Positions 11,809 to 31,901 of a stretch of 32,000 nt of DNA are shown in pieces. Numbering within the stretch: the stretch's first letter is position 1; every line of letters begins with the position of its first letter. Source of the stretch: Promethearchaeota archaeon. Its GTDB lineage: Archaea > Asgardarchaeota > Lokiarchaeia > Sigyniarchaeales > Promethearchaeaceae. The stretch lies in NCBI GenBank assembly GCA_016933055.1, contig JAFGBS010000001.1:60001-92000 (forward strand), given 5' to 3'. The notes beneath the pieces were generated by a model. The model saw nothing but the letters and a program-made list of their open reading frames with translations, was not told the DNA's origin and searched no databases. A program made the position numbers and the translations under genes.

Positions 11809-11839
11809 ATTGAACCATACCTTAAGTTAACATAAAAAA

Positions 11840-15749: not shown

Positions 15750-15784
15750 ATCGGTCTAAAATAGAATCCTCGAAATTTGAAAAT

Positions 15785-15826
15785 TCTTTTTTCTTTCTTT
15801 TCTCTTTCAATTTCTTCTATTATTTC
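15785..15826 (+). terminator. Pyrimidine/oligo-T tract after the SDR gene, possible archaeal intrinsic terminator
   Basis: TTCTTTTTTCTTTCTTTTCTCTTTC tract about 35 nt after the stop codon. Confidence 0.35.
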
Positions 15827-16056
15827 TACGAATTAATGACAATACACTCTAAACCTGTGCTTATTGAGGATGAAAATGGAAAAAAAATTCTACCACGATA
15901 TCTGCAATGTATTTTCTCTATGGATATTCGGATATTTTCTTTTTCAGAGTAGATGCGCTATCGTTATCTTTTGAAATATATCCGAAGTCTAAAAATATTC
16001 ATTTGTGCTTTCTTATTATCATCAAAAAATCATCAATATGAAGTGTGAATAAAAAA

Positions 16057-16512: not shown

Positions 16513-16535
16513 ACACCTATAAGTCTACTTTTACA

Positions 16536-17366
16536 TCATCCTTTTTTTAATTGTAATAATCTTCGAGTTTCATTTGGATCCGCAATCTCTCTACCCATAA
16601 TTTCCGAAATTTTGACTACCTTATTTACTAATTCTCCGTTAGATTTCGCAAGAATCCCTTTGGAAATATATAAATTATCTTCAAATCCAACTCGTGCATG
16701 CCCTCCCATTGCAATCGATTGTGCAATCATGGGAAATTGATAGCGACCGATTGCTGTTACTGTATATGTGCTTTCTTTCGGTAAAGAATTCAAGAGAAAA
16801 ACTAGATTTTCGGTAGTTGCGGCAATTCCCCCAAGAACTCCTAACACCAAGTTAAAATGCATGGGGTGTTTAATATAACCCTTTTTATGTAATCTGTTTA
16901 TGGTATCAATCATACCCTTATCAAAAATCTCTAATTCTGGTTTAATTTCTAATTCTTTCATTTTTTCTGCAAACTCAACTATCATCGATTCTGTGTTCAC
17001 AAATATCTCATCACCACCGAAATTCACGGTACCACAGTCCAGAGTCGCTATTTCTGGAGTAGGATCTAAATAAATAGGTTGTAACCGTTCTTCTGCAGTC
17101 ATTCCTATAGCTCCTCCCGTCGAAGGTAGAATAATTGCTTCGGGACATCGACTACGAATCTCCTCAAAACATTCCCGGAACCTTTCTTTATCTTGTGTAG
17201 GAGTTCCGTCGTCATAACGAACATGTAAATGGATTATACTTGCTCCTGCCCAATAAGCTGATTCTGCTTGAATCCCAATCTCTTCCACTGTATAAGGGAC
17301 ATTTGGATTTTGTTCTTTTGTGACCTCTGCTCCGCATATCGCAGCTGTTATGATGAGTTTTTCCAT
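16536..17366 (-). CDS. kce: 3-keto-5-aminohexanoate cleavage enzyme
   Basis: MEKLIITAAICGAEVTKEQNP, HLH Zn ligands, STGGA, LDCGTVNFG and RVGFEDN; lysine context. Confidence 0.95.
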   Translation of the reverse strand: MEKLIITAAICGAEVTKEQNPNVPYTVEEIGIQAESAYWAGASIIHLHVRYDDGTPTQDKERFRECFEEIRSRCPEAIILPSTGGAIGMTAEERLQPIYLDPTPEIATLDCGTVNFGGDEIFVNTESMIVEFAEKMKELEIKPELEIFDKGMIDTINRLHKKGYIKHPMHFNLVLGVLGGIAATTENLVFLLNSLPKESTYTVTAIGRYQFPMIAQSIAMGGHARVGFEDNLYISKGILAKSNGELVNKVVKISEIMGREIADPNETRRLLQLKKG

Positions 17367-17367
17367 T

Positions 17368-18624
17368 TCACATCAATCTTTTTGTCTCGTTCAAAGATTC
17401 ATCGATCATAGTTGCTGTATACTCCAAATCTTCTTTTGTATGCCGATAACAGATATAACCATGATGATAGGGTTGGAGGAATACTTTTCTACGAATCAAT
17501 TGTCGATAAAATTCTTCACGGAGCGTTTTATATAATTTCTGCTCATCTCGTCGGAAAGTAATGTAGGGCATTGATGCACCACCCGAATATACAGCAGGCA
17601 CACCGCTAGAGTCAATACTTTCTTGAATTTTTTTCTCTAAAACGCTCCCTCGATTCTTAATAGTATTAATAACATCATTTTTTTGCATAAAATTGATTGT
17701 TTTTAAGGAAGCGATTTGAGATAGGCTGTTTGGGAAAAAAGTGGAGCTAAGAAACACATTATGTTCTAATACATCCATAATTTCTGCTTTACCAACCAAA
17801 GTGCTGATAGGATATCCATTACCCATTGCTTTTCCAAAGCATGCTAAATCCGGAATCACTCCGAACTCTTTTTGAGCACCTCCCATATTTATACGAAAAC
17901 CAGTGCGAATCTCATCAAAAATGCATATAGCCCCATACTCATGAGCGAGTTGCTTTACGGAGCGTAAATATCCCGGTTCTGGTAACTCTACCTCATTTCC
18001 GCCTGGAGTATGGATTGGTGCGATAAATACTGCAGCTATCTGGTCTTTGTGCTGCTTTAAAGTTGTCTCGAGATGAGGGAGATTATTGAATTCAAACTCA
18101 ATTGTGTCATTTCTGATTTTATCGGGTATTCCCGCGTCAATTCCATACACATCTGAACTCCAATCATGCCAGCCTGCATAAGTTAGCGTCTTTAAAATTT
18201 TTTCTCGTCTTGTATACGCCCGAGCAACTCGAATAGCAGCTGTTGTAGCATCCGACCCCATTTTCATAAATACCATCTTTTCCGCACATGGGATCAGCTC
18301 TCGAAGTACTTTACCTAATTCATTTTGCACGGGTTGTGTTAACGACATGCAAAATCCATGATTTTGAATTTGATCCATAACCGCGTTATCAATTTCTTCT
18401 TCACGATGCCCTATTATTATCGGTCCATAGGCGCATAAATGATCCATATATTCATTTCCGTCCACATCAATGACTTTTCCACCTTTAGCTGTGTGAAAAA
18501 AGATGGGATATTCACCTTCTACAAAATTATAAGGCCTTCTTATACCCAAAATAGCACCCGGAATAAGTTCCAGCGCCTCTTCATATAATTTGAATGAATT
18601 TTTAAGATTTAATTTGTCAGGCAT
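17368..18624 (-). CDS. kat: 3-aminobutyryl-CoA aminotransferase (class III, HemL-like fold)
   Basis: GIRRPYNFVEGEYPIFF, LCAYGPIIIG, FLSSTFFPNS and VFLQPYHHGYICYRH closely match my recollection of the characterised Cloacimonas Kat. The gene ends 1 nt before kce. Start moved from 18675 to ATG 18624 (GGGAG SD). Confidence 0.85.
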   Translation of the reverse strand: MPDKLNLKNSFKLYEEALELIPGAILGIRRPYNFVEGEYPIFFHTAKGGKVIDVDGNEYMDHLCAYGPIIIGHREEEIDNAVMDQIQNHGFCMSLTQPVQNELGKVLRELIPCAEKMVFMKMGSDATTAAIRVARAYTRREKILKTLTYAGWHDWSSDVYGIDAGIPDKIRNDTIEFEFNNLPHLETTLKQHKDQIAAVFIAPIHTPGGNEVELPEPGYLRSVKQLAHEYGAICIFDEIRTGFRINMGGAQKEFGVIPDLACFGKAMGNGYPISTLVGKAEIMDVLEHNVFLSSTFFPNSLSQIASLKTINFMQKNDVINTIKNRGSVLEKKIQESIDSSGVPAVYSGGASMPYITFRRDEQKLYKTLREEFYRQLIRRKVFLQPYHHGYICYRHTKEDLEYTATMIDESLNETKRLM

Positions 18625-18761
18625 GTTGTATCTCCCATTTCGACTGATTAGTATATTCTTCTTACATTTTCCCACTTAATATTTTTTATTTCCAACTGGA
18701 ATTTGAAATACCGTAAATTTTTTGACATAAGTTGTTCAACATAAAATAGATAAATCTCCAG

Positions 18762-20783
18762 TTGGTGGACTCAATTCCGAAAGGCTATAATGGTAAAATT
18801 CTCTGGATCGATCTAAGTACTACGGACATTAAAGATGAAACTCTTGAGAAAAAAGTATATAGACAATATTTGGGGGGGTATGGATTAGGTGCGTATATCA
18901 TCTACTCACGAATGAAACCAAAAGTTGATGCACTCGGTCCAGATAATATTATCGGATTCTGCCCGGGATTACTTACGGGGAATCCTGCTCCATTTACAGG
19001 TAGATTTATGGTGTGTGCAAAGAGTCCTTTGACCGGTCGAGTTGAAAAACACCAACCCCTTAGAATTTCGGGTGGTTGGGGGGATGCAAATTCAGGAGGA
19101 TTTTTTGGTGCTGCCATTAAACGTGCTGGATATGATGGTATTTTCATAACGGGGAAAAGTAAAAAACCATGCGTTATCTCCATTGAAAAAGATGCTACTG
19201 AAATAGTCCTGACAGATGAGCTCGTGGGTAAGTCAGTAAGTGAAACGGAAACGCATCTAAAAATGAAATTCGGTAGATCCTCGCAAATCGCTTCTATTGG
19301 AGTAGCAGGAGAGAAATTATCCCGAATTTCAGGAATTGTTACGGATAAGGGTCGAATTGCTGCACGAAGTGGCTTAGGCGCTGTTATGGGCTCTAAAAAC
19401 TTGAAAGCTATATGTATTTCTCGTAAGAAGAGTCTTTCTGTCCATAATAAGGATACTTTAACTCAATTATCACGATCCTATACTCAAGAACTCAAAGAGA
19501 GATATTCTTCCCCTTCTACGGAATTGTTGGCGCGTAATGCCCCCCAGATCGCATTTATCATGCGTTGGTTGAAACAAGGAGTGAAAAGTAATGTAAATCT
19601 GCATGCTAAAACCTTGCACAAATGGGGGACGTCTTATGCTACCGGAATTTCTTCAGAACTTGGGGATCTTCCCATTAAAAATTACTTAGGTGCGGGATAT
19701 ACCGACTGGCCGCAAACAATTGCAGAAAAATTCTCGGGACAATATTTATTACGATATAAAAAGCGTTCCTATGGGTGTTTTTCATGCCCCTTGCAATGTG
19801 GGGCAATTCTCGAAGTACCGGAAGCAGGATTAGAGGAAATTCACCGGCCCGAATATGAAACTCTTGGAGCATTCGGGGGATTGATACTCAACGATGATAT
19901 AACTAAAACTATTCGGGTGAATCACCTACTAAATGAAGCGGGAATGGATACAATATCTGCAGGTGCTGTTCTCGCCTTCGTTTTGGAGTGTGTAGAAAAA
20001 GGGATCTTAACAAAAGAAGATTTTGTATCCGCATCCTATCCAGATGGATTTTTACCCACTTGGGGAAATCCCGATTATATTATTCCTTTGATAACTATGA
20101 TGATACACAGGGAAGGGATTGGTGATACACTTGCTGATGGAGTTAGAGTTGCTAGTTTAAAAATTCAAAAAGGTTCAGAGGGGTTTGCTTTTCATTTTGC
20201 CGGTCAAGAACCGGGTATGCATGATGCACGATTAGTTCCTGCGTTAATGATTGCATATGAAGCCGATCCCACCCCTGGTCGACACACAACCGCATGTTTA
20301 GACTATTTTGAGCAAGGAGAAATTAATAAATTTCTCCATAACTATACATTTTCGAACTCTACTGATCCCATCGAGAAAGGTAAAGCGAATGGACAATTTG
20401 CAAAGTTTCTGCAAACTATTAATGCACTGGGCTTTTGTGAGTTTGCTCTGTGGATGGGGGAATATCCTTTACTAGAAATCATCCACGCTGTAACTGGCTG
20501 GGAATTGAATATTGATGAATTTTTGGAGATAGGATGGAGAATTCAAACCTTGCGACAACAATTTAATGTTCGGGAAGCTGCATTGGAGATTGCATTCAAC
20601 AAGAATAGATTATATGGCAATCCCCCACTTCAAAATGGCCCCTTAAGCGGAAAAACCCTAAACAATGTTCAAGAACTCGTAGCTGGATATTTTGAACATC
20701 TTGGGTGGGATTCAGAGGGAAAACCACTCCCCGAAACCTTAGAAGCTTTAGGATTAAATATAATTAGTGAGAACAATGAGTGA
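18762..20783 (+). CDS. aor: Tungsten-type aldehyde:ferredoxin oxidoreductase family protein (copy 1)
   Basis: GGYGLG, AKSPLTG, AARSGLGAVMGSKNLKA, CFSCPLQC (4Fe-4S), EYET and GMDTIS. Confidence 0.92.
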   Translation: MVDSIPKGYNGKILWIDLSTTDIKDETLEKKVYRQYLGGYGLGAYIIYSRMKPKVDALGPDNIIGFCPGLLTGNPAPFTGRFMVCAKSPLTGRVEKHQPLRISGGWGDANSGGFFGAAIKRAGYDGIFITGKSKKPCVISIEKDATEIVLTDELVGKSVSETETHLKMKFGRSSQIASIGVAGEKLSRISGIVTDKGRIAARSGLGAVMGSKNLKAICISRKKSLSVHNKDTLTQLSRSYTQELKERYSSPSTELLARNAPQIAFIMRWLKQGVKSNVNLHAKTLHKWGTSYATGISSELGDLPIKNYLGAGYTDWPQTIAEKFSGQYLLRYKKRSYGCFSCPLQCGAILEVPEAGLEEIHRPEYETLGAFGGLILNDDITKTIRVNHLLNEAGMDTISAGAVLAFVLECVEKGILTKEDFVSASYPDGFLPTWGNPDYIIPLITMMIHREGIGDTLADGVRVASLKIQKGSEGFAFHFAGQEPGMHDARLVPALMIAYEADPTPGRHTTACLDYFEQGEINKFLHNYTFSNSTDPIEKGKANGQFAKFLQTINALGFCEFALWMGEYPLLEIIHAVTGWELNIDEFLEIGWRIQTLRQQFNVREAALEIAFNKNRLYGNPPLQNGPLSGKTLNNVQELVAGYFEHLGWDSEGKPLPETLEALGLNIISENNE

Positions 20784-22167
20784 AAAGAAAAAACCAACAG
20801 ATGCATTACAAGAGCAATTGGATAAATATCTACCAGAATTGCAGAAAATTTATGGTTCCCTTAAAACAAACCTACTCAATCCAGTAGGAAATCTCCTCAA
20901 CCGTTCGAGTAATAACTTATCCGATACTATTCAACTCGGTGTTGATCTCATCAATAAAGAATTGCGAGGAAAACATACAAAAAATTATTGGCGGTATTCT
21001 TATGAGGAACTAAACAAAATCCTTAAAGATGAAATGTGCCCCTGTGCCTTTCTTGATTTGGAAAGCTTTGATGAAAATGTGGACTGGCTAGATGAAGAGA
21101 TCCAAAAATACGGTAAAAAAGTACGGATTGGGACAAAATCCATCCGTGTACCGGAATTAACCAATCGAGCACTTAAAAAGCCCAATATTGAAGGGTTGTT
21201 TATTTTTCATCCAAATGAAATACAATATTACCAAGAAAAATATAAGCAGAAAGATTTTCTTCTTGCGTATCCCATTTATAACCGTCCCGAAGCGGATGTG
21301 TTAAGTAGTGCTATTAAAAGAGATTCTGAGACAAGAGTGCACGTGATGGTTGATTCTCCCGCCCATTTATATCTCTTGGAAAAGTCTGCAGCGAAACACC
21401 ATGTGAAATTAGGTATTATTGTGGATTATGATGCATCAGTAAATTTCATGGGACAATTAGCAGGAGTTATGAGATCCCCGTTACGCTTACCAAAAGAGGT
21501 AGTATCCCTTGCCCTTCAATGTAATGAATTCACACATTTAGAATTTCGGGGGATTATGGGGTATGAAGGTCAAGAGGCCGGTATTGGGGACTTTAGTGTG
21601 ATATATTCATTAATGAAGCAAAAATCCCGAAGAGAAAACGTCGCACGCAGGAGTGCAATTGTAAAAGCTCTAAAAGAAGCAGGATTAGAACCAGAGATCG
21701 TGAATGGAGGGGGATCTGGATGTTTTCAAGATACCGCAGATGAAGATCCCGTCACTGAAGTAACCATTGGCTCGGGATTGTTCAAATCCTATATATTTGA
21801 CCCTATTGAATCGATGGATAATTTTAAACCCTCCTTGTTCATGGCATTGCGGATTGTAAGATTTCCTAAAAATGGGGTAGCAACCTGTTTCTCTGGCGGA
21901 TATGTTTCCTCTGCTATAAATAAAAGCCCAAAAGTGGTTCTACCCGAAGGATGTAAAGAAACGCCACGTGAAGGATTTGGAGAAGTCCAAACTCCAATTC
22001 TTTATAATCCTAATGAAGTGTTTTTCAATTTGGGAGATATTATAATCTGCCGACTGGCTAAAGCAGGAGAACCTATGGAACGATTCAATGAAGTTGCAAT
22101 AATTTCCAAAGGAAAAATCGTTGATCATTATCCGACTAATCGAGGGTGCGGATTATGGTGTGGATAA
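20776..22167 (+). CDS. Fold-type III PLP enzyme, DSD1/D-threonine aldolase/alanine-racemase-like, with N-terminal extension
   Basis: AFLDL, RIGTKSIR (PLP Lys), GIMGYEGQEAG, VNGGGSG, EVTIGSG and GFGEVQTP. Start overlaps the aor stop. Confidence 0.82.
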   Translation: MSEKKKPTDALQEQLDKYLPELQKIYGSLKTNLLNPVGNLLNRSSNNLSDTIQLGVDLINKELRGKHTKNYWRYSYEELNKILKDEMCPCAFLDLESFDENVDWLDEEIQKYGKKVRIGTKSIRVPELTNRALKKPNIEGLFIFHPNEIQYYQEKYKQKDFLLAYPIYNRPEADVLSSAIKRDSETRVHVMVDSPAHLYLLEKSAAKHHVKLGIIVDYDASVNFMGQLAGVMRSPLRLPKEVVSLALQCNEFTHLEFRGIMGYEGQEAGIGDFSVIYSLMKQKSRRENVARRSAIVKALKEAGLEPEIVNGGGSGCFQDTADEDPVTEVTIGSGLFKSYIFDPIESMDNFKPSLFMALRIVRFPKNGVATCFSGGYVSSAINKSPKVVLPEGCKETPREGFGEVQTPILYNPNEVFFNLGDIIICRLAKAGEPMERFNEVAIISKGKIVDHYPTNRGCGLWCG

Positions 22168-22184
22168 AAAAATAAAAAAATATT

Positions 22185-23645
22185 TTAAATTCCTAATTCG
22201 GCTTTCTTTTGCTCAATCATCTTTTTCTTATCGCCTTTAATATCGTAAATCAAAGCAAATAGACCAATGAAAATGGCAAGCCCGACCGAGGGAACGATAG
22301 CAAGTAATCCTCTTATTCCAAAGGTAGCTGCGGGATTCTGCAATTGCCCAAATGGCAAAGTTTCATCGAAATTGGTTAGTATATGGACAATAAGTGTTAC
22401 GGCTGTGAAGACAATGATCATCAACCGTCCAAAGAACACATTAATACCGACAAACACACCGGAGTCTCTCTTCTTGGTCTTGATGCTTAATTCATCCAAA
22501 ACTTCCGCAAAAACTGGTGCTAACATCGTCCACATTCCTCCATTTCCGAATCCTGCTATAAAGAAAAACGGCATTGATACAGTATAATCTGTTATGAAGA
22601 TAAAGGGAGTTGTTAAAAGGGCTTGTCCAAAACCCGCGTATATCATTGTTTTCCGAAAACCTATTTTTTTGGAGATTATTGTCCAAACCGGCACTGATAC
22701 TAATTGACCAATAATAAATAATGCAAGAAGTATAGTCATAGAGTCAGGATCTTTAACCAAGACATATTTGTTCCAATAAGGTAATGTACCGAGAACAAAT
22801 TGATCCCAAATCTTATTTCCCACATAAAAGCAAAGATATGCAACATAGCTCTTAGTAGCCAACCCTAATTTCAGGTACTTCCAAAAAGATTCTTGTTTTT
22901 CCTCATCTTCATGCCATTCTATTGCTTTTCTACGGGGACTCTGACGAGTTCCATATAATACTCCAGCAGATGGTATTAAAGCAATCGCTCCAATAACGAG
23001 AGCCATCATTCCATAGGATCGAATATCATCATACTCATATAATAGTGGGGGTAAGAGATTACCAACAAGGACTGCTGCAATTGCTAAATATAACCTCCAA
23101 ACATTTGCTTTTCTCTTGGTTGCGTCATCTTGGAACTTTTCCGGAAATTGCGCAAACCAATGCACGTAGAAAAGGGAGTAAAACGTATCAGCAAGACATA
23201 ACATGACGAACAACCAAAGGAACAAGATATAGTCGAAGAACCATGCAGGTTGGCAATATTCCGTATAACAAGTCGGTATCAGGAAGCCAGGTGGGGTAAA
23301 AACGGCTAGATAACTTATGTATAAAAGGGGAATACAAATCGCAGTCCATAAACCTCGTTTACCCCATTTCTTCCAGAATGGTCGCTTTCTCTCCGAAATA
23401 AAACCCAATAGAGGATCGTTTACAGCATTCCAAATCGCAAACAAGACATTCGCGGCTAGCAAGAATGCAGGTCCTAGATAGAGTTCCGTTTCATAGAAAA
23501 AGAAATAAAGAGCCCCAAATGAATTACCAACTAGTTCAACGGCAAATGAACCAAACGCATAAGAAGACATCGTCCAGTGGGACTTGTTTCGCTTTTCCCA
23601 GCCATCTAATTGGGAGTAATCTATTTTCGAAGTATTTTCGCTCAT
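22185..23645 (-). CDS. MFS transporter, GPH/MelB-like family
   Basis: About 12 hydrophobic segments; IWNAVNDPLLGFISE...WGKR; C-terminal YDIKG. ATG 23645 follows an AGGTG SD. Confidence 0.9.
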   Translation of the reverse strand: MSENTSKIDYSQLDGWEKRNKSHWTMSSYAFGSFAVELVGNSFGALYFFFYETELYLGPAFLLAANVLFAIWNAVNDPLLGFISERKRPFWKKWGKRGLWTAICIPLLYISYLAVFTPPGFLIPTCYTEYCQPAWFFDYILFLWLFVMLCLADTFYSLFYVHWFAQFPEKFQDDATKRKANVWRLYLAIAAVLVGNLLPPLLYEYDDIRSYGMMALVIGAIALIPSAGVLYGTRQSPRRKAIEWHEDEEKQESFWKYLKLGLATKSYVAYLCFYVGNKIWDQFVLGTLPYWNKYVLVKDPDSMTILLALFIIGQLVSVPVWTIISKKIGFRKTMIYAGFGQALLTTPFIFITDYTVSMPFFFIAGFGNGGMWTMLAPVFAEVLDELSIKTKKRDSGVFVGINVFFGRLMIIVFTAVTLIVHILTNFDETLPFGQLQNPAATFGIRGLLAIVPSVGLAIFIGLFALIYDIKGDKKKMIEQKKAELGI

Positions 23646-23713
23646 ATTATACACCTAATATACCATGAAATGGTTAGTGATAGTTTACCTTAAAACTATT
23701 TAATAGTTTGGTG

Positions 23714-23738
23714 AATTCTATATACATCTATAGGAATT
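23714..23738. promoter_or_regulatory. Putative operator, TTCTATA-N6-TATAGGA imperfect palindrome, in the MFS/creatininase divergent promoter
   Basis: Half-sites at 23716-23722 and 23729-23735; the same half-site recurs in 29242-29318 and 30395-30434. Confidence 0.45.
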
Positions 23739-23780
23739 TTTAAAATTCTCTGAATTCATAAAAATGGTAACATCAGCAAT

Positions 23781-23795
23781 AAAATAAATATAAAA
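23781..23795 (+). promoter_or_regulatory. Putative BRE/TATA box of the creatininase-family gene
   Basis: A-rich run followed by TATAAAA (23789-23795), starting 31 nt upstream of the ATG, which fits a leaderless archaeal promoter. Confidence 0.45.
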
Positions 23796-23819
23796 CCACT
23801 ATCCATAGAGAATGTCATC

Positions 23820-24581
23820 ATGAAAAAAAACACTATTAGGTTGGATGAATATACATGGGAAGAGATACGATCTCTCATAGAAAACGGACATAAAACGGTC
23901 GTGTTCGGCATCGGTGCAACCGAACAGCACGGTCCTTCTCTGCCATTAATGGCGGATGCACTTCAAGCTGATGAAACTGCAAATATTATTGCTCACGAAC
24001 TACCAAAAGCTCTTCAAGCTCCCACTATTCGAGTAGGGTATTCGAAATATCATATGCATTTCCCAGGAAGCATGACATTACGAGTATCCACCCTCCAAGC
24101 GCTTATTGAGGATTATATTGATAGTTTTGTGCATCATGGATTCAATAAGATTGTGATCTTTGTTTCCCATGGAGGAAACGTTCCATCCACACAAAAAGTT
24201 GTTGCCGAGAAACACCAACAATATCCTAACGTAAGAATAGTGTATTATTATGATCAAGATGCTATGCCCGTTATTGGGAAACTCGCGATGGAATTTCAGC
24301 TAACTCCTGGGCAAATTGGGACCCATGCAGGTCACATGGAAGCGAGTATGGTACAATATTATGCTGAAGACCTCGTAGATAAAGACCGCTTGGTGGAGGG
24401 ATATACTGGTGAATGGAATGAGGAAATGCACCATAAAATGCATGAGAATGGGATGCATACCATTTCAAAAAACGGAATCTTAGGAGATCAGCGCGGTTCT
24501 AGCAAGGAAATGGGGCAAAAATACATTGATGCGTTGAAACCTGTTATGATGAACTACATTAAAAAGAATTTAGAAGAGTAA
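23820..24581 (+). CDS. Creatininase/creatinine amidohydrolase family metallo-amidohydrolase
   Basis: GATEQHGPSLPLMAD (E/H/D ligands), HMHFPGS, SHGGN and HAGHMEAS. Confidence 0.9.
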   Translation: MKKNTIRLDEYTWEEIRSLIENGHKTVVFGIGATEQHGPSLPLMADALQADETANIIAHELPKALQAPTIRVGYSKYHMHFPGSMTLRVSTLQALIEDYIDSFVHHGFNKIVIFVSHGGNVPSTQKVVAEKHQQYPNVRIVYYYDQDAMPVIGKLAMEFQLTPGQIGTHAGHMEASMVQYYAEDLVDKDRLVEGYTGEWNEEMHHKMHENGMHTISKNGILGDQRGSSKEMGQKYIDALKPVMMNYIKKNLEE

Positions 24582-24588
24582 ACTTCTT

Positions 24589-25560
24589 TCAATTCATTAA
24601 TATTCCATCCTTTAGGATAACTTGACCATCTATTTCGATGGTTCCCCTTCTCATTATTAAATCATAATGCAAACTTGCGGTTACAGTTCCCCCAAGAGTG
24701 ATATTGGTTCCGATACCAATATGCACAGATCCAAGTACTCCTTCATCTTCCAGCATGATACCCTTGAATGAACACTTAGGATTTAATCCGATCCCCATTT
24801 CTGCGATGTTATAAACAAAAGGATCCTCTTTGGATTCAAGATTTTCACTAAGCATCTTAGCTTGGTATCCCCCATCTATCGAATCAATCATTCCATTTTT
24901 TACAACACATGTTACGGGTTCTTTCAGTAAACCTATTCCGATATAGGGAATGCTAGCATCTGCAACGATTACGCCATTTGCAGACCCCTCCACTGGAGAA
25001 CAATTAGCTTCTATAGTCGGAATCGTGGAAAATTGCCCTGGTTCTACGATACCGTATAGGGCATTTCCTCGTCGTCCTTCAGCAGAAAATGTTAGATCGG
25101 TTCCTTTACGAGTAGTCAAATGAACATTATTTCCCACCTCTAAAAGCCTGGCATATTTTTTGCAGATAGGAGCGATCTGCTTGAAATCTGCTTCTATTCC
25201 CCCTCCTATTAATAATTGTTCCGTAAATTGGGTCAAGAGAATTCCACGTGTTCCGTTTTCAACGGCATTTTTTACTGCATTAGTGTGAGTGATGGATGTT
25301 TTTACAGCCGATATGAATACATTGCTGTTCAATATGGCATTTGCTACGATATTGGGTGGTTCTTGTCCATCGGAATCCCTTGGTAGGATTGAAATAATCA
25401 CGGGTTCTGCGTCTACTTTTTGGACTTCTGATGCCACAGAATTCGCAATAGATACCATGCCAGATTCGGTGAGAATTACTACAAGATCTCCTGGCTTTAC
25501 TTGGGCACAAGTTTGGACTATAGTTCTGGCTCCTCGAGCCATTTTTTCGCGATTATTCAT
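24589..25560 (-). CDS. Peptidase M29 / aminopeptidase T-like metallohydrolase
   Basis: PTIEA, IAEMGIG, EDEG..GSVHIGIG and SLHYD retain the E/E/E/H/H/D dinuclear ligand set. Confidence 0.85.
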   Translation of the reverse strand: MNNREKMARGARTIVQTCAQVKPGDLVVILTESGMVSIANSVASEVQKVDAEPVIISILPRDSDGQEPPNIVANAILNSNVFISAVKTSITHTNAVKNAVENGTRGILLTQFTEQLLIGGGIEADFKQIAPICKKYARLLEVGNNVHLTTRKGTDLTFSAEGRRGNALYGIVEPGQFSTIPTIEANCSPVEGSANGVIVADASIPYIGIGLLKEPVTCVVKNGMIDSIDGGYQAKMLSENLESKEDPFVYNIAEMGIGLNPKCSFKGIMLEDEGVLGSVHIGIGTNITLGGTVTASLHYDLIMRRGTIEIDGQVILKDGILMN

Positions 25561-25640
25561 AGCGAATCATTTTGATTTTTTACTTCCGATTAAGCATCCA
25601 TTCATTAGAAAAATTATAATTCGTCATCTAGAAGCTATGG

Positions 25641-27356
25641 CTAATTTATTTTTTTCTTAGTTCGGATTCTCATATGGCTTGCAGGTTTTACTTCAACATC
25701 AATTATTATGGGATAATCTTTAGTAAGGGCATCTCTCAGTTCTTTTCGTAATTCATCTGCCTCAGATACGCATATACCTTTCAATCCCATTGCTTCAGCA
25801 ATTGCTGCTAAGTTCGGTCTTTCATAATCACAGAATTTCCTTCCTTTGCTTGAGAGATAATCCCTAACGTTCCCATAGCATCCGTTATTGATTACTACGA
25901 TAATCGGGTCAAAATTATACTGCTTCATTGTCTCAAAATTATAAAGACACATGAGAAGTGATCCATCTCCCTCCACTGCGATGGTTTTTCCTTCAGTATG
26001 GATCATTGAACATGTCATTGCGGCGCTAGAGGCCCACCCCATCCCAGCAGCACCAAAGGGACCAATTAACTGACCTGCTGTTTTCGTTTGGAAGAGTTTA
26101 GTGAACCACATACGATTATTTCCCGCACCCAGTATCAATTTATCATTTTCCCTGATCACTTCATTAATTATTTTTACAACAACCTCAGGATTTAATGGTG
26201 TCTCTTCATCATCCATCATCTTATGGTGGAACCAATTATTCTCTGGATCTTTCTTACGATCATTTAATTTCTTAATTCGCGCTTGAACGTCAATTTTCGG
26301 TTTTTTCTCTTTAATAATTCGAATTATCTCTTGAAGAGCTATTTTTGCATCTGATGTCACTCCCATATCGATTGGATAGGTCCATCCGGCATTTCTGGGT
26401 TCAATATCAATCTGAATAATTTTCTGCCGAATCGGATCAATAAATTCATCACTACAATTCATTGTATTATCTGGAGCTAGCGCAGAACCAACAACAAAAA
26501 TTATATCAGCTTCTGCAATTTTTTCGTTTGCTAAAAGTTGACTTAATGCACCTGTAGTTCCGAGGGCAAGATCATGAGTCTCGGGTATGATTCCTTTTCC
26601 CCCATAACTCGTAGCTACGGGAATTCCTAATAGTTCGACTAGTTCCAATACTTCCTTTTCTGCTTTGGATGCAAAAGTTCCTCTTCCACATATCATTACA
26701 GGGTTTTTAGCCTTGATTAACTTCTCTACTATATTTTCTGCATCGTTCAAACTGATCGAAGGGGGACTAACTCGTAAATATCCATCAAGTGGCCATAAAG
26801 GGGGTTCTACATTTGACATGGTATCTACCGAGGCTAACATGACATTCCATTTTGCAATGACCGCTACCGGTCCGGGACGCCCGGAAGTTGCATGTTTAAT
26901 AGCAAGTTGAATTGCATAAAGGAGTTCTTTTGGTGAATTCGCTTCAGTTACATATTTACAGTAAGATCCATATAAAGCTCGTAAATCTACCGTTCCATAT
27001 TCCCCCGTCCCTGATTGATATGCACCATGGTGGTTAATTCCATACCAATCCGAGTATTCAGTGATTATCACTAAGGGAATTCCCGCAAAATAGGATTCTA
27101 CAATACCAAAACCCCCATTTGTAGCCATCCAGATTCCTTGACCGATCAGAATCCCCGGCTTTCCGGTCATACGACCATACATATCCGCCATAACTGCCGC
27201 TGCCCCTTCATGATGCGTCACAATTGTAGTGAACTCATTGGGACGCTTGTAGAATTCTTCGAACAAGAAGGGGGCGACTCCTCCTGGTAAACCAAATATA
27301 TGGGTTAATCCGCTTTGTACAAACATATCCGCAATAATTTCAGTAATTTTAGGCAT
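25641..27356 (-). CDS. Thiamine-diphosphate-dependent enzyme (AHAS/POX-like architecture, non-canonical active-site motifs)
   Basis: IFGLPG, catalytic HHEG, middle domain IQIDIEP and ThDP-binding GDGS...NNG. GGAGGAG SD lies in the end of the upstream aor. Confidence 0.88.
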   Translation of the reverse strand: MPKITEIIADMFVQSGLTHIFGLPGGVAPFLFEEFYKRPNEFTTIVTHHEGAAAVMADMYGRMTGKPGILIGQGIWMATNGGFGIVESYFAGIPLVIITEYSDWYGINHHGAYQSGTGEYGTVDLRALYGSYCKYVTEANSPKELLYAIQLAIKHATSGRPGPVAVIAKWNVMLASVDTMSNVEPPLWPLDGYLRVSPPSISLNDAENIVEKLIKAKNPVMICGRGTFASKAEKEVLELVELLGIPVATSYGGKGIIPETHDLALGTTGALSQLLANEKIAEADIIFVVGSALAPDNTMNCSDEFIDPIRQKIIQIDIEPRNAGWTYPIDMGVTSDAKIALQEIIRIIKEKKPKIDVQARIKKLNDRKKDPENNWFHHKMMDDEETPLNPEVVVKIINEVIRENDKLILGAGNNRMWFTKLFQTKTAGQLIGPFGAAGMGWASSAAMTCSMIHTEGKTIAVEGDGSLLMCLYNFETMKQYNFDPIIVVINNGCYGNVRDYLSSKGRKFCDYERPNLAAIAEAMGLKGICVSEADELRKELRDALTKDYPIIIDVEVKPASHMRIRTKKKIN

Positions 27357-29174
27357 TTATATCTCCTCCTTTAAAGTGGGTTCTGATTCATCCCATTTAC
27401 GTAATTTATAATATCTTGCTATCATTTCTTTGGTGGGAGGGGTGTTCTTTTTTGTTCCCCCCTTCGGGATGCTAATGTGAAAACGTTCATATAGTCTATC
27501 ATCCTCTTTTGTTTGACCCGCCGCGATGTTAAATGCTCGTTTCATACTGATTAAATCTTGCCCAACTTTCATCCACGAATCGACAGAATATTTTTTTCCT
27601 GTTATCGCATTGAGACAATCGATCCATGGCTGAATTTCTGGAATAAAATTAAAACCAAATATACAACCACCACATGCAGAATATGCCTCACTGGCATCTT
27701 GAATCTTAATCACGGTTTCGGGAGCGGCTTCTGCATCAAAACGTTTGACAGCAGAATCTAATCCAATTTCTTTTTTATAATTCATGGAGGTGGAAAGATG
27801 CATTGGCATGTAACAATGAAACGCCCCTCGGGGAGTTGTAATATAGTCTAATGCGGTCATATTATTAGCACGAGGTTCATGTGCGGGGACTTCCAATCCT
27901 TTTACATGGGTTTCGTATATTTCGGGTAATTTATGCTTCTTACAGAACGATCGAACCCCTTCACCCAAATCGAATGCTATATCTCCCTCCCGATATGCGA
28001 TTTTTTTTATCATTTCTTCAATAGCGGGAACTCCACCCCAAGTTTGGAAAATGACTCGTTTTTCTGGATCTGGCCTAAAACCTAATTCTTCCAGTTTTAC
28101 GGGGACTTTTCCCGAATTGGCGAGTTCTAAGAACATCGCTAACACTCCCCCCAAAGAAATAGTATCCATACCAAGATCATTAACTAATACATTCCAACGG
28201 ATTAATGCATCTAAATTATCGACTAAAATATTGGCACCCATCATCGCAAGAGTTTCATATTCTGGCCATCGTACCCACTCTCCCTCATATTCCACCATTC
28301 CGGTGCATCCCGTCGGGCATGCATAACAATGATGTTTTTTCACTTCTTTTTCAGCAAATATCGCATTAGCACCGATATTTCGCAATCCCGGCCATCTGGA
28401 TTGAGTGTAATTTTGAATGGGAACATCACCGATACCTGCCATGGAATCAATTCCGGCAGGAGTACCGAACTGTTTATATACGCCCTCCATCGGGCTTTCT
28501 TCAAGTAATTCGCGTATGTGTTTTACAGCTTTTCTTAGATTCTCGGGATTTTTGATAACGGGTTTAACGGTCCCCTTCACAGCTATAGCTTTTAGCTTTT
28601 TAGATCCCATTACCGCTCCAAGACCACACCTTCCTGCAGCTCTATCTTTTTCATTCATAATGGATGCGAAATTTACAAGATTCTCTCCCGCAGGACCTAT
28701 AGAAGAAATTTTTACTGTACCATCCTTTAAATCTTCCATTATTAGTTTTTCAGTTTCCCTCGTTGTGTTACCCCAAATTTTTGAAGCATCCCTAAACTCT
28801 ACTGCATCATTAGTAATAAGCAGATAAACGGGTGTTTTACTTTTCCCTGTAATTAAAAGGTGAGAATAACCGGTTTTTCTTAATTCAAAGTTCCAAAATC
28901 CCCCACTAGATGCTTCCCCCAGCAATCCTGTTAATGGGGATTTCGATAACACAAAATGTCTGCCACAATAGGGAACAGAAGTGGCGGCAAAAGGACCAAC
29001 AGAAAAAATTATCACATTTTCTTCATCAAATGGATCGATTTTCGGATCTACTTCGCGAGTAAATATCGCCGTGGCGACACCCATCCCACCAAAGTATTTT
29101 TCTTCCAGCTTTGGATCTAATTCTTCAGAAGTGAATTTGTAAGTGGTTAGATTAATTCTAAGTAGTTTTGTCAT
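27357..29174 (-). CDS. aor: Tungsten-type aldehyde:ferredoxin oxidoreductase family protein (copy 2)
   Basis: GGMG, SKSPLTG, AAGRCGLGAVMGSKKLKA, CYACPTGC, EYET and GMDTIS. Confidence 0.92.
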   Translation of the reverse strand: MTKLLRINLTTYKFTSEELDPKLEEKYFGGMGVATAIFTREVDPKIDPFDEENVIIFSVGPFAATSVPYCGRHFVLSKSPLTGLLGEASSGGFWNFELRKTGYSHLLITGKSKTPVYLLITNDAVEFRDASKIWGNTTRETEKLIMEDLKDGTVKISSIGPAGENLVNFASIMNEKDRAAGRCGLGAVMGSKKLKAIAVKGTVKPVIKNPENLRKAVKHIRELLEESPMEGVYKQFGTPAGIDSMAGIGDVPIQNYTQSRWPGLRNIGANAIFAEKEVKKHHCYACPTGCTGMVEYEGEWVRWPEYETLAMMGANILVDNLDALIRWNVLVNDLGMDTISLGGVLAMFLELANSGKVPVKLEELGFRPDPEKRVIFQTWGGVPAIEEMIKKIAYREGDIAFDLGEGVRSFCKKHKLPEIYETHVKGLEVPAHEPRANNMTALDYITTPRGAFHCYMPMHLSTSMNYKKEIGLDSAVKRFDAEAAPETVIKIQDASEAYSACGGCIFGFNFIPEIQPWIDCLNAITGKKYSVDSWMKVGQDLISMKRAFNIAAGQTKEDDRLYERFHISIPKGGTKKNTPPTKEMIARYYKLRKWDESEPTLKEEI

Positions 29175-29241
29175 AAAATCATACTCTATCTTATTAACTA
29201 TATCGTATGGTTTGTCTTATCGCAATATAAATCTTTCAAAA

Positions 29242-29256
29242 TCCTATATTTCTATA
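29242..29256 (-). promoter_or_regulatory. Putative operator (tandem TATAGAA/TATAGGA) upstream of aor copy 2
   Basis: Minus strand reads TATAGAA-A-TATAGGA-N12-TATA (TATA begins at 29229). Confidence 0.4.
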
Positions 29257-29343
29257 TATTTAATCTACTTGCTCAGTGAATCAGTATAAAACTCTATAAA
29301 TAATCCATAGATTCTATATTTATACAATTATTTTTGATCTCAG

Positions 29344-30375
29344 ATGTATCGAAGAAAAATCGTGTTAACGGGTAAAAGCTCTTTTGTGGTAACATTGCCA
29401 AAGGAGTGGGTAGAAAATAATAAACTTAAGAAAAAACAGGAAATTTATTTTCTCACTTTGGATGATGGATCTCTTTTACTGACCCCATATCTTAATAAAA
29501 AGAAGTACCGTAAACTCCTAAAAGTGACTAAAGATATCAGTCATCTCAAAAGACTGATTTATGCAACTTATTTGGGGGGTTATTCGGAAATGAAAATTAG
29601 CAGTGATTCAAGCATTGATTCGGAAACGAGATCAGAAATCAAACAGATTTCTAATGCTTTAATGGGAGTTGAAGTTGGAGAGGAGACCCCTGATTCCATG
29701 ACTTTAAAGAATATGGTGCAAGATTCGGGGATTAATTTTCAAGATATCATTTCCACTATGATGGAAATGACTCTATCCATGTTTGAAAGTGCCTTTAAAG
29801 CCTTGAAAAATAGGGATGAAACAACAGCGCAGTTTGTGGTGGATCGCGATAAAGAAGTCAACCCGAAAAACCATGCGATTACTCGAATAATGAATACATA
29901 TCTTCAAGATTTAACTTTAACACAAAGTTTAGGAGTATCCTTAATTGAAGCTCAGTCAAATTTTGCATTAAGTATGTTTCTAGAGAGTTTGGCGGATTTT
30001 GCCGTACTGATCAGTCGAAATATAATCAATATGCTTGAACAAGGTATAGATATTGCTTCTATCAGCGAAATTGTAAAGATAGGAACTAAATATACAGAAA
30101 TTATGACTCAAATATTTTTTAATTGGAAAAATGATAATAAAGATGGTGTTCGGCAGCCTTTAGATGAGAGTAATGTATACCAAGCTAATCTATACCTTGA
30201 TCAATTGGGTGTTGTCAAATTGGAGTGTGCAAAATTGATGGAAAGATTTCGAAAACAATCAATTAACTCCTATTTATATGTTATCCTCGAGAAAATTCAA
30301 CAATCCATCAAAACATTGTCCAATATCGCTTTAATTTCAATTGACATCGTAGAGGGCAAGCTTCCCCAAGACTAA
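29344..30375 (+). CDS. AbrB/SpoVT-domain plus PhoU-domain regulator (archaeal PhoU-like regulator family)
   Basis: N-terminal RKIVLTGKSSFVVTLPKEWV swapped-hairpin DNA-binding motif; YLGGY; helical PhoU-like repeats (DRDKEVN, ESLADFA). Confidence 0.85.
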   Translation: MYRRKIVLTGKSSFVVTLPKEWVENNKLKKKQEIYFLTLDDGSLLLTPYLNKKKYRKLLKVTKDISHLKRLIYATYLGGYSEMKISSDSSIDSETRSEIKQISNALMGVEVGEETPDSMTLKNMVQDSGINFQDIISTMMEMTLSMFESAFKALKNRDETTAQFVVDRDKEVNPKNHAITRIMNTYLQDLTLTQSLGVSLIEAQSNFALSMFLESLADFAVLISRNIINMLEQGIDIASISEIVKIGTKYTEIMTQIFFNWKNDNKDGVRQPLDESNVYQANLYLDQLGVVKLECAKLMERFRKQSINSYLYVILEKIQQSIKTLSNIALISIDIVEGKLPQD

Positions 30376-30394
30376 AGATTATTTATCTCCTTTT

Positions 30395-30435
30395 TTCTAT
30401 ATAGGAAATATCAAAATTATATATATCTATAGGAA
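30395..30435 (+). promoter_or_regulatory. Putative operator sites upstream of the aminotransferase
   Basis: TTCTATATAGGAA (30395-30407) and ATCTATAGGAA (30425-30435). The latter 11-mer is identical to 23726-23736. Confidence 0.4.
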
Positions 30436-30446
30436 CAACTAATTGG

Positions 30447-30453
30447 TATAAAC
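30447..30453 (+). promoter_or_regulatory. Putative TATA box of the class III aminotransferase gene
   Basis: TATAAAC starts 30 nt upstream of ATG 30477 (leaderless spacing). Confidence 0.45.
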
Positions 30454-30476
30454 AAGATAATTGATTGTGATGCACC

Positions 30477-31901
30477 ATGAAGTATGAAGAAATTATACAA
30501 AGATTGGAGAATTTACGTGAAACTCCACCTGTAGATGTATCAAATTCTGTGATCGAGCCAGCGATTCAAGAATTTTATAAGAGATACCCGAAATCTCTCG
30601 CAATGTTCGAAGAAATGAAGAAATACATACCTGGTGGAATTGAACATATGAATTCCATTCAATATCCCTTCCCAATCGTCATAAATAAAGCCCAGGGACC
30701 TTATCTATTTGATTTGAATGGAAACAAATTTATAGATTACCTTATGACCTCGGGTCCATGCATTTTGGGTCATAACTATCCTGAAGTGCGAGACTATGTC
30801 ATTGAAGTATTAAGAGAAAATGGACCTGCTACAGGAGTCATGTGTGAATATGAGTTACTTGCTGCAAAAAAGATATGCGAGCATATGGAGAACGTAAGTA
30901 AGGTAAGATTCTATCAGAGTGGCTCTGAGGCAAATATGGCGATGGCTCGAATTGCGAGGTTGTATACGGATAAGAAAAAAATCATCAAGGTGGAAGGGTC
31001 GTATCATGGATGGGCGGATCAGTTTGTCACGGGACTTCATTTACCAGGGACAGGTCCTATGTTCGCTCATGGCATTCCTCCAGAGCATTATTCTAATACC
31101 GTAGGAGTTATGCCAAATGATATTGAAGGGATAAAGAAAGCGATTTCTGATAATAAAGATAAGGGGGGTACAGCTGCAATTGTGCTAGAGGCATGTGGGG
31201 GGGATTCTGGTACTTTTCCTCCCGCTCCCGGATATTTGGAGGAAGTTAGGGAAATATGCACAGAAAATGATGTGCTACTCGTGTTTGACGAAGTTGTTAC
31301 GGGTTTTCGACTTAGTATGGGTGGAGCTCAAGAATATTATGGAATTGATGCAGATATATCAGTTTTAGGTAAGATTGTGGGTCACGAATACCCTAGTGCA
31401 GGCGCAGTTGGCGCACGAGACGATATCATGCAGATGATTTTGGGAAAGGGAGGAAATAATTCTGAAATCGGTCAAAAAGTCTTTACAGCAGGTACCATGG
31501 CTGGGACTAACTTAACCAGTGCTGCAGCTTATAAAGCAATTGAATGCATCGAAAAAACAAACACTATTGAAATTGCCGGCAAGGTTGCGGATGAACTATC
31601 CAAGGGGTTGAATAAAATCTTCGCAGATTATAAGCTTCCGTTTTTCACATATAATTTCAAATCTATAATCCAGCTGCGTATGTCAGGTTTTTATACTGTA
31701 GATCTAACTAAACCTAACGCAATCAAAGAAGTTTTACAGCGCAGAGAAAACGCAGCAAAATATCAAATATTAGAAGCTCTAGAGGGAATCAACACATTAC
31801 AATCTATCCGAATGTATACCTCATTGATGCATAATGATAATAAACTAATCAATGATACTCTTGTTGGATTCGAACGTATTTGTCAAAAATTATCAAAATG
31901 A
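30477..31901 (+). CDS. Class III PLP aminotransferase (HemL-like but divergent)
   Basis: DLNGNKFIDY, SGSEA, SYHG, FDEVVTGFR, GKIVG (PLP Lys) and GT. Confidence 0.88.
   Translation: MKYEEIIQRLENLRETPPVDVSNSVIEPAIQEFYKRYPKSLAMFEEMKKYIPGGIEHMNSIQYPFPIVINKAQGPYLFDLNGNKFIDYLMTSGPCILGHNYPEVRDYVIEVLRENGPATGVMCEYELLAAKKICEHMENVSKVRFYQSGSEANMAMARIARLYTDKKKIIKVEGSYHGWADQFVTGLHLPGTGPMFAHGIPPEHYSNTVGVMPNDIEGIKKAISDNKDKGGTAAIVLEACGGDSGTFPPAPGYLEEVREICTENDVLLVFDEVVTGFRLSMGGAQEYYGIDADISVLGKIVGHEYPSAGAVGARDDIMQMILGKGGNNSEIGQKVFTAGTMAGTNLTSAAAYKAIECIEKTNTIEIAGKVADELSKGLNKIFADYKLPFFTYNFKSIIQLRMSGFYTVDLTKPNAIKEVLQRRENAAKYQILEALEGINTLQSIRMYTSLMHNDNKLINDTLVGFERICQKLSK

Follow-up and report, generated by a model that had tools for sequence, protein, structure and literature searches.

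The window analysed here is a stretch of 32,000 nucleotides (positions 60001-92000 of contig C16) from the metagenome-assembled genome (MAG) of a Promethearchaeota archaeon, an uncultured Asgard archaeon whose genome measures 3.76 Mb and is 91% complete. An earlier note on this DNA had pointed to seven clustered genes between positions 22185 and 31901, encoding a transporter, two amide hydrolases, a thiamine diphosphate (ThDP) enzyme, an aldehyde:ferredoxin oxidoreductase (AOR), a regulator and an aminotransferase. Both the positions of the open reading frames (ORFs) and the Pfam matches agree with these seven genes and with the families assigned to them. The whole case presented here is one of comparative sequence evidence, and on balance it inclines us to the view that these genes probably belong to a catabolic module that is regulated and moves horizontally, and whose core consists of three enzymes, an aminotransferase (AT2), the ThDP enzyme and an AOR (AOR2).

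The three-enzyme core

The core enzymes are encoded as follows (window coordinates):

27357..29174, minus strand: AOR2, an AOR sensu stricto-like, tungsten-type aldehyde:ferredoxin oxidoreductase (AFOR_N 6e-75, AFOR_C 1.3e-87)
25641..27356, minus strand: AHAS-like ThDP enzyme of an uncharacterised clade, a proposed 2-oxo acid decarboxylase (Pfam TPP_enzyme_N, M and C)
30477..31901, plus strand: AT2, a class III (GSAM-like) aminotransferase (Aminotran_3 3.8e-46)

AOR2 belongs to the AOR sensu stricto group by its domains, its cysteine motif and its closest characterised relative, with tungsten as the predicted metal. Its best match in the PDB was the P. furiosus AOR (1aor, 1.1e-108), ahead of FOR, WOR5 and BamB, and the cysteines of the 4Fe-4S cluster were located in CYACPTGC at residues 283-290 and at C501 and C504. 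At the junction of the two genes (27354-27359), AOR2 ends in KEEI followed by a TAA stop codon, and the ATG of the ThDP gene follows directly in the same frame, with a GGAGG 8 nt before it. Judging by this arrangement, AOR2 and the ThDP gene are translationally coupled.

The database searches revealed three AOR::ThDP fusion proteins (P0002, P0011 and P0012) on three contigs of one Asgard lineage. These proteins are 66-86% identical to one another and share a conserved linker, and all three are cut by contig ends. At locus L005, AFOR_N, AFOR_C and TPP_N, M and C were all found within one open frame. The junction in the sister lineage carries an open linker, SWLDRPKVRPRR, in place of the TAA. 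Given that a single in-frame TAA stands at the window junction, one substitution could fuse the two genes or split them again. By the 'Rosetta stone' argument, the natural fusion suggests a single stream of metabolites for the AOR and the ThDP enzyme, and the three natural fusions strongly support the coupling of these two enzymes that the earlier note had proposed.

The ThDP enzyme shows the domain set of the POX/AHAS-like three-domain superfamily (PYR, middle and PP) along with its catalytic Glu and its GDG...NN motif. Glu50, which we take to be the catalytic Glu by analogy with AHAS, and the ThDP-Mg motif GDGS...NN are invariant across 14 orthologues. No NCBIfam model reached its cut-off: the AHAS equivalog model TIGR00118 gave 284.7 bits against a cut-off of 538.35, and the Xsc, IolD and Cdh models were not close to theirs. 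The best PDB match was BbmA (5e-54), with Cdh and benzaldehyde lyase also among the hits. When aligned with plant AHAS, the RFDDR segment pairs with APDNT in the ThDP enzyme, and the Trp-loop segment falls in a gap. RFDDR of AHAS is associated with flavin adenine dinucleotide, its last arginine binding the acceptor 2-oxo acid, and the absent loop carries the tryptophan of the herbicide site in plant AHAS. Since the ThDP enzyme lacks both, an AHAS-like role as 2-oxo acid carboligase is unlikely for it. An IlvN-like small-subunit gene was not seen among the ORFs flanking the ThDP gene, whose neighbours are AOR2 and a NicX-like gene. A PDC-like His-His pair at residues 109-110 was considered and rejected, as it is not conserved among 117 homologues.

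AT2 carries the PLP-binding Asp and the Schiff-base Lys of class III aminotransferases, and the segments DEVVTGFR and LGK are kept in AT2 and five relatives. Its PDB neighbours include GSAM, CrmG-like enzymes and beta-transaminases. Against the hemL model TIGR00713 it scored 278.8, far from the cut-off of 527.3, and the paralogue elsewhere in the source genome likewise stayed below, at 286. All three core families have relatives in this genome, with 13 AOR matches that amount to ~9-10 genes and 13 TPP_enzyme_C hits; none of its ThDP paralogues reached the AHAS cut-off and none of its GSAM-like aminotransferases the HemL cut-off.

A second neighbourhood of the same genome (G000:C22:111000-119200, or L056 7061-15166) combines an AOR and an MFS_2 gene with an AHAS-like ThDP enzyme of 636 aa, whose identity to that of the window is 25%. 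The top NCBIfam hits of this enzyme include the IolD and Xsc models, below cut-off. This neighbourhood may be a paralogous module for a different substrate.

Conservation of the neighbourhood

The neighbourhood survey was anchored on the ThDP gene. Up to 10 kb was fetched on either side of each match, and the ORFs of the fetched loci were called stop to stop and then compared with the window proteins; percentages below are the resulting identities. All locus counts come from related genomes, which are non-independent samples, and many of the contigs are short.

ThDP orthologues of at least 48% identity were found in 20 of the 400 Asgard genomes, covering 12 of 85 genera and one class only, which marks an accessory gene. 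The gene was not found in three closed genomes of the source family. An AT2-like aminotransferase lay within 10 kb of the ThDP gene in 12 of 21 places (8 of 12 genera), and an AOR was within the same distance or fused to it in 10 of 21 (6-7 of 12 genera). For a random 20 kb stretch, the rough expectations derived from gene copy numbers are ~1.5% for the aminotransferase (1-3 copies per genome) and ~7% for the AOR (~9-10 genes). Measured against these values, the clustering around the ThDP gene is not a matter of chance.

The earlier note had staked its proposal, among other things, on synteny, and the survey found it. The congener (L001) keeps the entire arrangement at 75-86% identity. Other Asgard families and bacteria have subsets of the orthologues around their ThDP gene (L005, L006, L031, L034, L036, L044, L054, L055, L080 and L087). 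At L036, on an archaeal contig of 195 kb, an M20 gene, MFS_2 (62%), ThDP (55%), creatininase (53%, directly downstream of ThDP) and a D-threonine aldolase (DTA)-like gene (70%) run in one direction, and AT2 (65%) is divergent from a PhoU-type regulator. At L031, MFS_2 (63%) is accompanied by AOR2 (68%) and then ThDP (63%), followed by M20, AbrB-PhoU and AT2 (68%). In both loci MFS_2 stands beside ThDP, and the regulator divergent from the AT2 orthologue has the same architecture as that of the window, at 25-26% identity. More distant AT2 relatives (37-48%) adjoin ThDP in other Asgard loci and in bacteria; the idea that the ThDP-linked aminotransferases form a single clade was rejected, as two or three clades were distinguished.

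L005 and L044 contribute DTA-like, creatininase-like and LarA-like genes. The loci of family f3 (L006, L022, L024 and L029) combine aminotransferase, ThDP and AOR with an adjoining set of Amidohydro_3, a D-serine dehydratase (DSD)-like enzyme, RidA and a GPH transporter. Other enzymes that form 2-oxo acids, namely DSD-like with RidA, LarA-like and ApbA, stand beside ThDP elsewhere, and L025 contains a ceramidase-like gene. All accessory gene types of the window recur as orthologues beside the core in some other locus.

These results bear on the simplest alternative, in which a true AHAS, a true HemL and an ArfB are housekeeping genes and neighbours by chance. AHAS and HemL are indeed the top NCBIfam names, but every score is far under its cut-off, and in the scan of curated models no window gene gave a hit to the ArfB model. 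RFDDR is missing, as is an IlvN-like gene among the ORFs beside ThDP. The distribution is patchy, with the creatininase-family gene present in 9 of 41 relatives in addition to the ThDP counts given above, and the genes are syntenic with AOR and hydrolases. The housekeeping assignment is thus scarcely credible, in line with the earlier note.

In one Asgard genus (L004 at 9929-10652, L023 and L026), the ThDP gene is flanked by a toxin-antitoxin-like HEPN/nucleotidyltransferase pair and by URO-D-like and cyclophilin-like genes, instead of an aminotransferase and an AOR.

The bacterial survey, with one genome per GTDB species, gave 80 loci, of which 27 are bacterial and in the clade of at least 41% identity. 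Within these 27, an AT2-like gene stands beside ThDP in seven, an AOR is present in seven, and a split UxaA-type dehydratase follows ThDP directly in three. Two of these loci, L080 and L087 from Spirochaete and Leptospirales MAGs, have aminotransferase, ThDP and AOR one after the other. ThDP is followed by AOR in L078, L084, L085, L124 and L055, the two lie near each other in L054 and L077, and an aminotransferase adjoins ThDP in L071-L076 (except L074) and in L033. The locus of a SAR324 bacterium (L034) holds the aminotransferase, ThDP, a NicX-like gene (52%), an MFS gene, a C45 enzyme, MFS_2 and a DTA-like gene (35%). The split UxaA-type dehydratase (SAF + GD_AH) is found beside ThDP in L054, L082, L089 and L090. 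In the ThDP loci at 34-41% identity (~44, mostly Dehalococcoidia and SAR202), no AT2-like gene and no AOR was present nearby. The association therefore defines one clade, that of at least 41% identity.

Two further features of the bacterial loci were observed. The Dehalococcoidia/SAR202 ThDP enzymes (35-39%) regularly have, within a few kb, a second ThDP paralogue of 24-26% identity as their partner (L096, L103, L110-L112, L115, L117, L119, L121, L130, L133 and L140). A MerR-type regulator of 490-508 aa adjoins ThDP in L032, L033, L053 and L054 (Deltaproteobacteria-type and Abyssobacteria MAGs); its long C-terminal part has no Pfam or NCBIfam match, and the protein may sense the ligand in the bacterial form of the module.

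Accessory genes, module boundary and promoter regions

Around the core, the following features were identified:

18762..20783, plus strand: AOR1, a second tungsten-type aldehyde:ferredoxin oxidoreductase (AFOR_N 4.7e-66, AFOR_C 1.5e-88; CxxCxxxC at 339-346)
20767..22167, plus strand: DTA-like, a divergent fold-type III pyridoxal phosphate (PLP) enzyme, D-threonine aldolase / D-3-hydroxyaspartate aldolase-like (Ala_racemase_N 1.2e-09)
22185..23654, minus strand: GPH/MFS_2-type transporter, probable importer (MFS_2 5.5e-45)
23655..23819, no strand: promoter region from which the MFS and creatininase genes diverge, with TCTATAGGAA at 23727-23736 beside the TATA-like box TTTTTAAAA
23820..24581, plus strand: creatininase-family binuclear metal amidohydrolase (Pfam Creatininase 1e-56)
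24589..25560, minus strand: NicX/M29-like metalloenzyme (323 aa) that probably hydrolyses amides or peptides (Peptidase_M29 1.7e-08)
29175..29343, no strand: AT-rich promoter region from which AOR2 and the regulator diverge, in which TCTATAT words recur and no exact TCTATAGGAA occurs
29344..30375, plus strand: AbrB/SpoVT-PhoU protein, probable local regulator (MazE_antitoxin, AbrB-type, 1.7e-08; PhoU 9e-08)
30426..30435, plus strand: second exact TCTATAGGAA, which follows closely on a TATA-like run and precedes the start codon of AT2 by 42 nt

The end of AOR1 overlaps the start of the DTA-like gene. The latter matched 6qkb (3.5e-09) and 7yqa (4e-08) in the PDB, and its orthologues were found at 70% in L036, in the string with ThDP and creatininase, at 65% in L005, 44% in L044 and 35% in L034. 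The AORs that adjoin the aminotransferase-ThDP pair in the f3 loci are 41-44% identical to AOR1. As AOR1 and the DTA-like gene are part of the same conserved set, the module starts at 18762, not 22185; the span given by the earlier note does hold its seven genes, but it was drawn too narrowly.

All six active-site positions of the P. putida enzyme are identical in the aligned creatininase-family protein. In P. putida creatininase these residues are the five ligands of the binuclear metal site (Glu, His, Asp, His and Glu) together with the catalytic His. The curated models fell short of their cut-offs, with 107.1 for TIGR04448 (cut-off 235) and 108.9 for MftE TIGR03964 (cut-off 172). In L011-L013, loci of one Asgard genus without the ThDP enzyme, a creatininase orthologue (38-40%) shares an operon with MFS_2, and this operon adjoins class III aminotransferase, ADP-forming acyl-CoA synthetase-like and 3-hydroxyisobutyrate-dehydrogenase-like genes.

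The second hydrolase had been labelled an M29-family enzyme. A match to the M29 family (PF02073, 34 bits) does exist, but it covers only 54 N-terminal residues (5-58), and NicX/M29-like describes the protein better. NicX (7cn3) is its best PDB match (2.6e-12) and covers residues 90-318. Its structural neighbours in the Atlas are clusters that are 97-100% PF26233, with TM values of 0.92-0.97, and the protein is ~80 residues shorter than classical M29 enzymes. E254, H298 and D300 are kept in most aligned homologues, and E270 and H280 in the closest ones. The position of an iron-ligand His of NicX is a Glu here, as in M29 peptidases, and the HxD is retained. With Glu at this position, a hydrolase fits better than a dioxygenase in an anaerobe. 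In 40 related genomes only paralogue-level relatives (at most 34%) were found; the true orthologue is bacterial and lies directly downstream of ThDP in the SAR324 bacterium (L034 = L073), where its identity of 52% exceeds that of ThDP.

The hydrolase slot is filled differently at other loci, by Amidohydro_3, M20, C69-like, ceramidase-like, penicillin amidase, C45, MlrC or hydantoinase. Hydrolases are thus swapped between loci, and one substrate shared by both window hydrolases is therefore only a proposal. The family-level evidence for the transporter is weak because some 38 MFS_2 (GPH-type) genes lie above the Pfam cut-off in the 3.76 Mb genome, which is a marked expansion.

The earlier note had also described a promoter motif shared by the cluster, which is borne out in part. 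Two exact copies of TCTATAGGAA occur in the window, both in promoter regions of the module, whereas shuffled sequences led to an expectation of 0.11 and none of 100 shuffles reached two. The word was picked after inspection of the sequence, however, and with one mismatch allowed it is not enriched (5 copies in the window, one of them at 30398, against 3.5 expected), nor are its degenerate forms; it was not found in the related loci. The congener does retain the MFS-creatininase promoter region, in which it has an insertion of 2 nt.

Upstream of the module, a complete lysine-fermentation gene set occupies window positions 7176-18675. It comprises KamE, KamD, a 351-aa gene, KamA, a Kdd-like gene, a CoA transferase of two subunits, Kce and, directly upstream of Kce, a Kat-like class III aminotransferase. 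Relatives of this set were also observed near the ThDP module in L036 and L018 (CoA transferase 47-53%, KamA 53%). At 1037-1570 the window encodes a small GTPase of the Ras family (Pfam Ras 6.6e-37), one of the eukaryote-like signature genes typical of Asgard archaea.

A looser reading, which we regard as unlikely, holds that independent genes for amino-acid and peptide catabolism have gathered in accessory regions next to the lysine-fermentation operon, and that only AOR2 and the ThDP enzyme, perhaps with AT2, cooperate. The variation of hydrolase families among loci, the ~38 MFS_2 copies, the five transcription directions in the window, the creatininase-MFS pair that occurs without ThDP in another genus (L011-L013) and the lack of M29-like orthologues in most Asgard ThDP loci all point that way. 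Against it, creatininase, DTA-like and NicX-like orthologues (52-70%) stand in co-directional strings with ThDP in unrelated lineages (L036, L034), and the divergent arrangement of regulator and AT2 is kept in L031 and L036.

Proposed route and comparison with known systems

From the observed gene families, conserved catalytic motifs, synteny and gene fusion, we infer each reaction, the reaction order and the direction of flux of the module that we favour. The MFS_2 transporter would import a precursor, in which the creatininase-family and NicX/M29-like metallohydrolases would open or deacylate an amide, exposing the amino group. AT2 would convert the free amino acid to a 2-oxo acid, the AHAS-like ThDP enzyme would decarboxylate the latter to an aldehyde, and AOR2 would oxidise the aldehyde to a carboxylic acid with reduction of ferredoxin. 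Taken together, the ThDP enzyme and AOR2 would act as a coenzyme A (CoA)-independent 2-oxo acid:ferredoxin oxidoreductase. A beta-hydroxy amino acid may enter in parallel through the DTA-like enzyme with AOR1, which would involve either an aldol cleavage that yields an aldehyde or a deamination that yields a 2-oxo acid. The AbrB-PhoU protein would regulate the gene set. As for the single oxidative route of the earlier note, the linkage of the core and the synteny sustain it in part, whereas the hydrolases have turned out to be swappable accessories and the module extends further upstream.

Decarboxylation is the simplest reading because it explains the fusion, the aminotransferase-ThDP-AOR order and the frequent presence of other enzymes that form 2-oxo acids. 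Several observations weigh against it. BbmA, the nearest solved relative of the ThDP enzyme, is no known simple decarboxylase, and the sequence of the ThDP enzyme itself gives no proof of decarboxylation over lyase or ligase chemistry. The ThDP-linked aminotransferases represent more than one clade, and the AT2 family occurs in 149 of 400 genomes, mostly distant from ThDP. Class III aminotransferases usually act on omega-amines or aldehydes; if AT2 acted on an omega-amine, the aldehyde would be made directly and the ThDP step would be left unexplained. About 40% of the Asgard ThDP loci have neither an aminotransferase nor an AOR nearby (L004, L007, L008, L020 and L023), and the hydrolase families change from locus to locus. 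The route also forgoes the ATP obtainable by an acyl-CoA route through 2-oxo acid:ferredoxin oxidoreductase (OFOR) enzymes.

Some of these points feed the main rival, an amine or aminoketone route, to which we assign a low probability. AT2 would here be an omega- or amine-transaminase whose substrate, released by the hydrolases, is an amino alcohol, an amino sugar or an alpha-aminoketone. With the same low probability, the ThDP enzyme would be a carbon-carbon lyase or hydrolase acting on an alpha-hydroxyketone or dione, comparable to benzaldehyde lyase, IolD, cyclohexane-1,2-dione hydrolase or Xsc, and the AOR would oxidise the aldehyde fragments. This agrees with the typical amine and aldehyde substrates of class III GSAM-like aminotransferases and with the PDB neighbours of both AT2 (GSAM, CrmG-like enzymes and beta-transaminases) and the ThDP enzyme (BbmA, Cdh and benzaldehyde lyase). 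The creatininase family includes the carbon-carbon hydrolase IolN (a weak hit here, 1.5e-09), L025 contains the ceramidase-like gene, L044 has AT2 and AOR2 orthologues together without ThDP, and an aldehyde from cleavage would explain the fusion equally well. What tells against such a route is that UxaA-type, DSD with RidA, LarA and ApbA genes flank ThDP in many loci, which fits a 2-oxo acid substrate better, and that the curated Xsc, IolD and Cdh models are nowhere near their cut-offs.

A biosynthetic direction appears very improbable. In that case the AOR would reduce an acid to an aldehyde, the ThDP enzyme would ligate it to a 2-oxo acid to give an acyloin, and AT2 would aminate the ketone; the product, an amino alcohol or secondary metabolite exported by the MFS protein, is equally improbable. 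BbmA is the best solved relative of the ThDP enzyme, and BbmA-type enzymes may form acyloins. AORs are moreover reversible (PMC9295118). The neighbourhoods, however, are dominated by hydrolases, importer-type GPH transporters, RidA and dehydratases, tailoring, nonribosomal peptide synthetase and polyketide synthase genes are absent, and the ThDP enzyme lacks the acceptor-binding features of AHAS.

Within the decarboxylation route, the substrate context leans towards non-standard amino acids derived from amides (D-, beta-hydroxy-, N-acyl and cyclised amino acids and amino-sugar acids) and away from the twenty standard ones. Among the genes of this context are those for D-aminoacylase-family and DSD/DTA-family enzymes, RidA, GPH transporters and varied amidases. 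Lysine and arginine 2-oxo acids, D-phenylglycine-like acids, glucosaminate/2-keto-3-deoxygluconate (KDG), homoserine, 2-oxoglutarate, taurine, allantoin and ectoine were considered as candidates, and none was singled out.

In anoxic sediments, Asgard archaea are regarded as consumers of amino acids and peptides, and we know of no assigned role for most of their many AOR, AHAS-like and GSAM-like paralogues. The proposed module would link one paralogue of each kind into a single three-step route, which is also encoded in SAR324, Spirochaetota, Thermodesulfobacteriota and Abyssobacteria MAGs. Its carriers may in this way reduce ferredoxin with amino compounds for which the standard 2-oxo acid oxidoreductases are not suited. 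A broader proposal, possible in our view yet doubtful, is that AOR-ThDP is an unrecognised CoA-independent tungsten/ThDP 2-oxo acid:ferredoxin oxidoreductase which, with a dedicated class III aminotransferase and swappable amidases, constitutes a widespread anaerobic pathway for non-standard amino acids (D-, beta-hydroxy- or N-acylated ones, for example, or amino-sugar acids) set free from necromass amides, shared horizontally by Asgard archaea and sediment bacteria. The AOR::ThDP fusion offers a ready construct for work on aldehyde channelling, and a CoA-free decarboxylating oxidation of 2-oxo acids could be of interest for biocatalysis.

Among known systems, the anaerobic phenylalanine catabolism of Aromatoleum has the three-step logic of the proposed route: the amino group is transferred, a ThDP enzyme decarboxylates the product, and a tungsten AOR, or Pdh in its stead, oxidises the aldehyde. 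A transaminase and a phenylpyruvate decarboxylase of Aromatoleum aromaticum EbN1, reportedly described by Debnar-Daumler and colleagues in 2014, are said to carry out the first two steps. The tungsten AOR oxidises phenylacetaldehyde in this catabolism (PMC6365974). In the window, the aminotransferase is of class III (GSAM-like), not class I, the putative decarboxylase is AHAS-like and not of the IPDC/PDC type, and AOR2 is closest to the archaeal P. furiosus enzyme. Genes for AorA- or AorC-like subunits were not evident among the ORFs beside AOR2, for which no dedicated search was made. The AOR and the ThDP enzyme are coupled, and in the sister lineage fused, and hydrolases, a transporter and a fold-type III PLP enzyme are attached. 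By family composition, which differs at each step, the window module would work like the Aromatoleum route and is not a member of it. Ehrlich-type routes follow the same three-step logic.

The 2-oxo acid:ferredoxin oxidoreductases POR, VOR, IOR and KGOR likewise turn a 2-oxo acid into CO2 and reduced ferredoxin by means of ThDP. The window system would differ in using two enzymes and two cofactors (ThDP and tungstopterin) with a free or channelled aldehyde; since no acyl-CoA would be formed, it would yield no substrate-level ATP, unlike these enzymes.

The arginine transaminase pathway of Pseudomonas aeruginosa consists of AruH, AruI and KauB, and D-phenylglycine catabolism of D-PhgAT, benzoylformate decarboxylase and benzaldehyde dehydrogenase. 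Both routes combine an aminotransferase, a decarboxylase of the POX/AHAS superfamily and aldehyde oxidation for an amino acid outside the standard routes. AruI-type (NF005712 5.3e-56) and D-PhgAT-type (2cy8 5.6e-45) proteins are detectable relatives of the window proteins, far below the family cut-offs. These routes differ in that NAD(P)-dependent aldehyde dehydrogenases take the place of the AOR and the set of hydrolases and transporter is absent.

The ong cluster of Pseudoalteromonas, which acts on the oxidised chitin sugar GlcNAc1A, encodes the deacetylase OngB, the D-amino-acid-deaminase-like OngC and the RidA protein OngD (PMC9537276). As proposed for the module, a deacylase frees a 2-amino acid, there D-configured, and a PLP enzyme deaminates it to a 2-oxo acid, with RidA alongside (PMC9537276). 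The resemblance is to the f3 loci, with their set of Amidohydro_3, DSD-like enzyme, RidA and GPH transporter; the window itself has no Amidohydro_3 and no RidA, and its fold-type III enzyme is only 20-24% identical to the DSD-like ones. The last steps of the ong route are moreover those of KDG kinase and aldolase, where the module would have its ThDP enzyme and AOR.

Searches of the literature outside subscription journals, directed at this gene combination, at an AOR with a decarboxylase in Asgard archaea and at BbmA/CsmA, revealed no description of the module. The earlier note had not recognised the combination as a described pathway; the three-step logic is known from Aromatoleum phenylalanine catabolism, while no account of the enzyme families used, the AOR::ThDP fusion and the accessory set was found within the literature searched.

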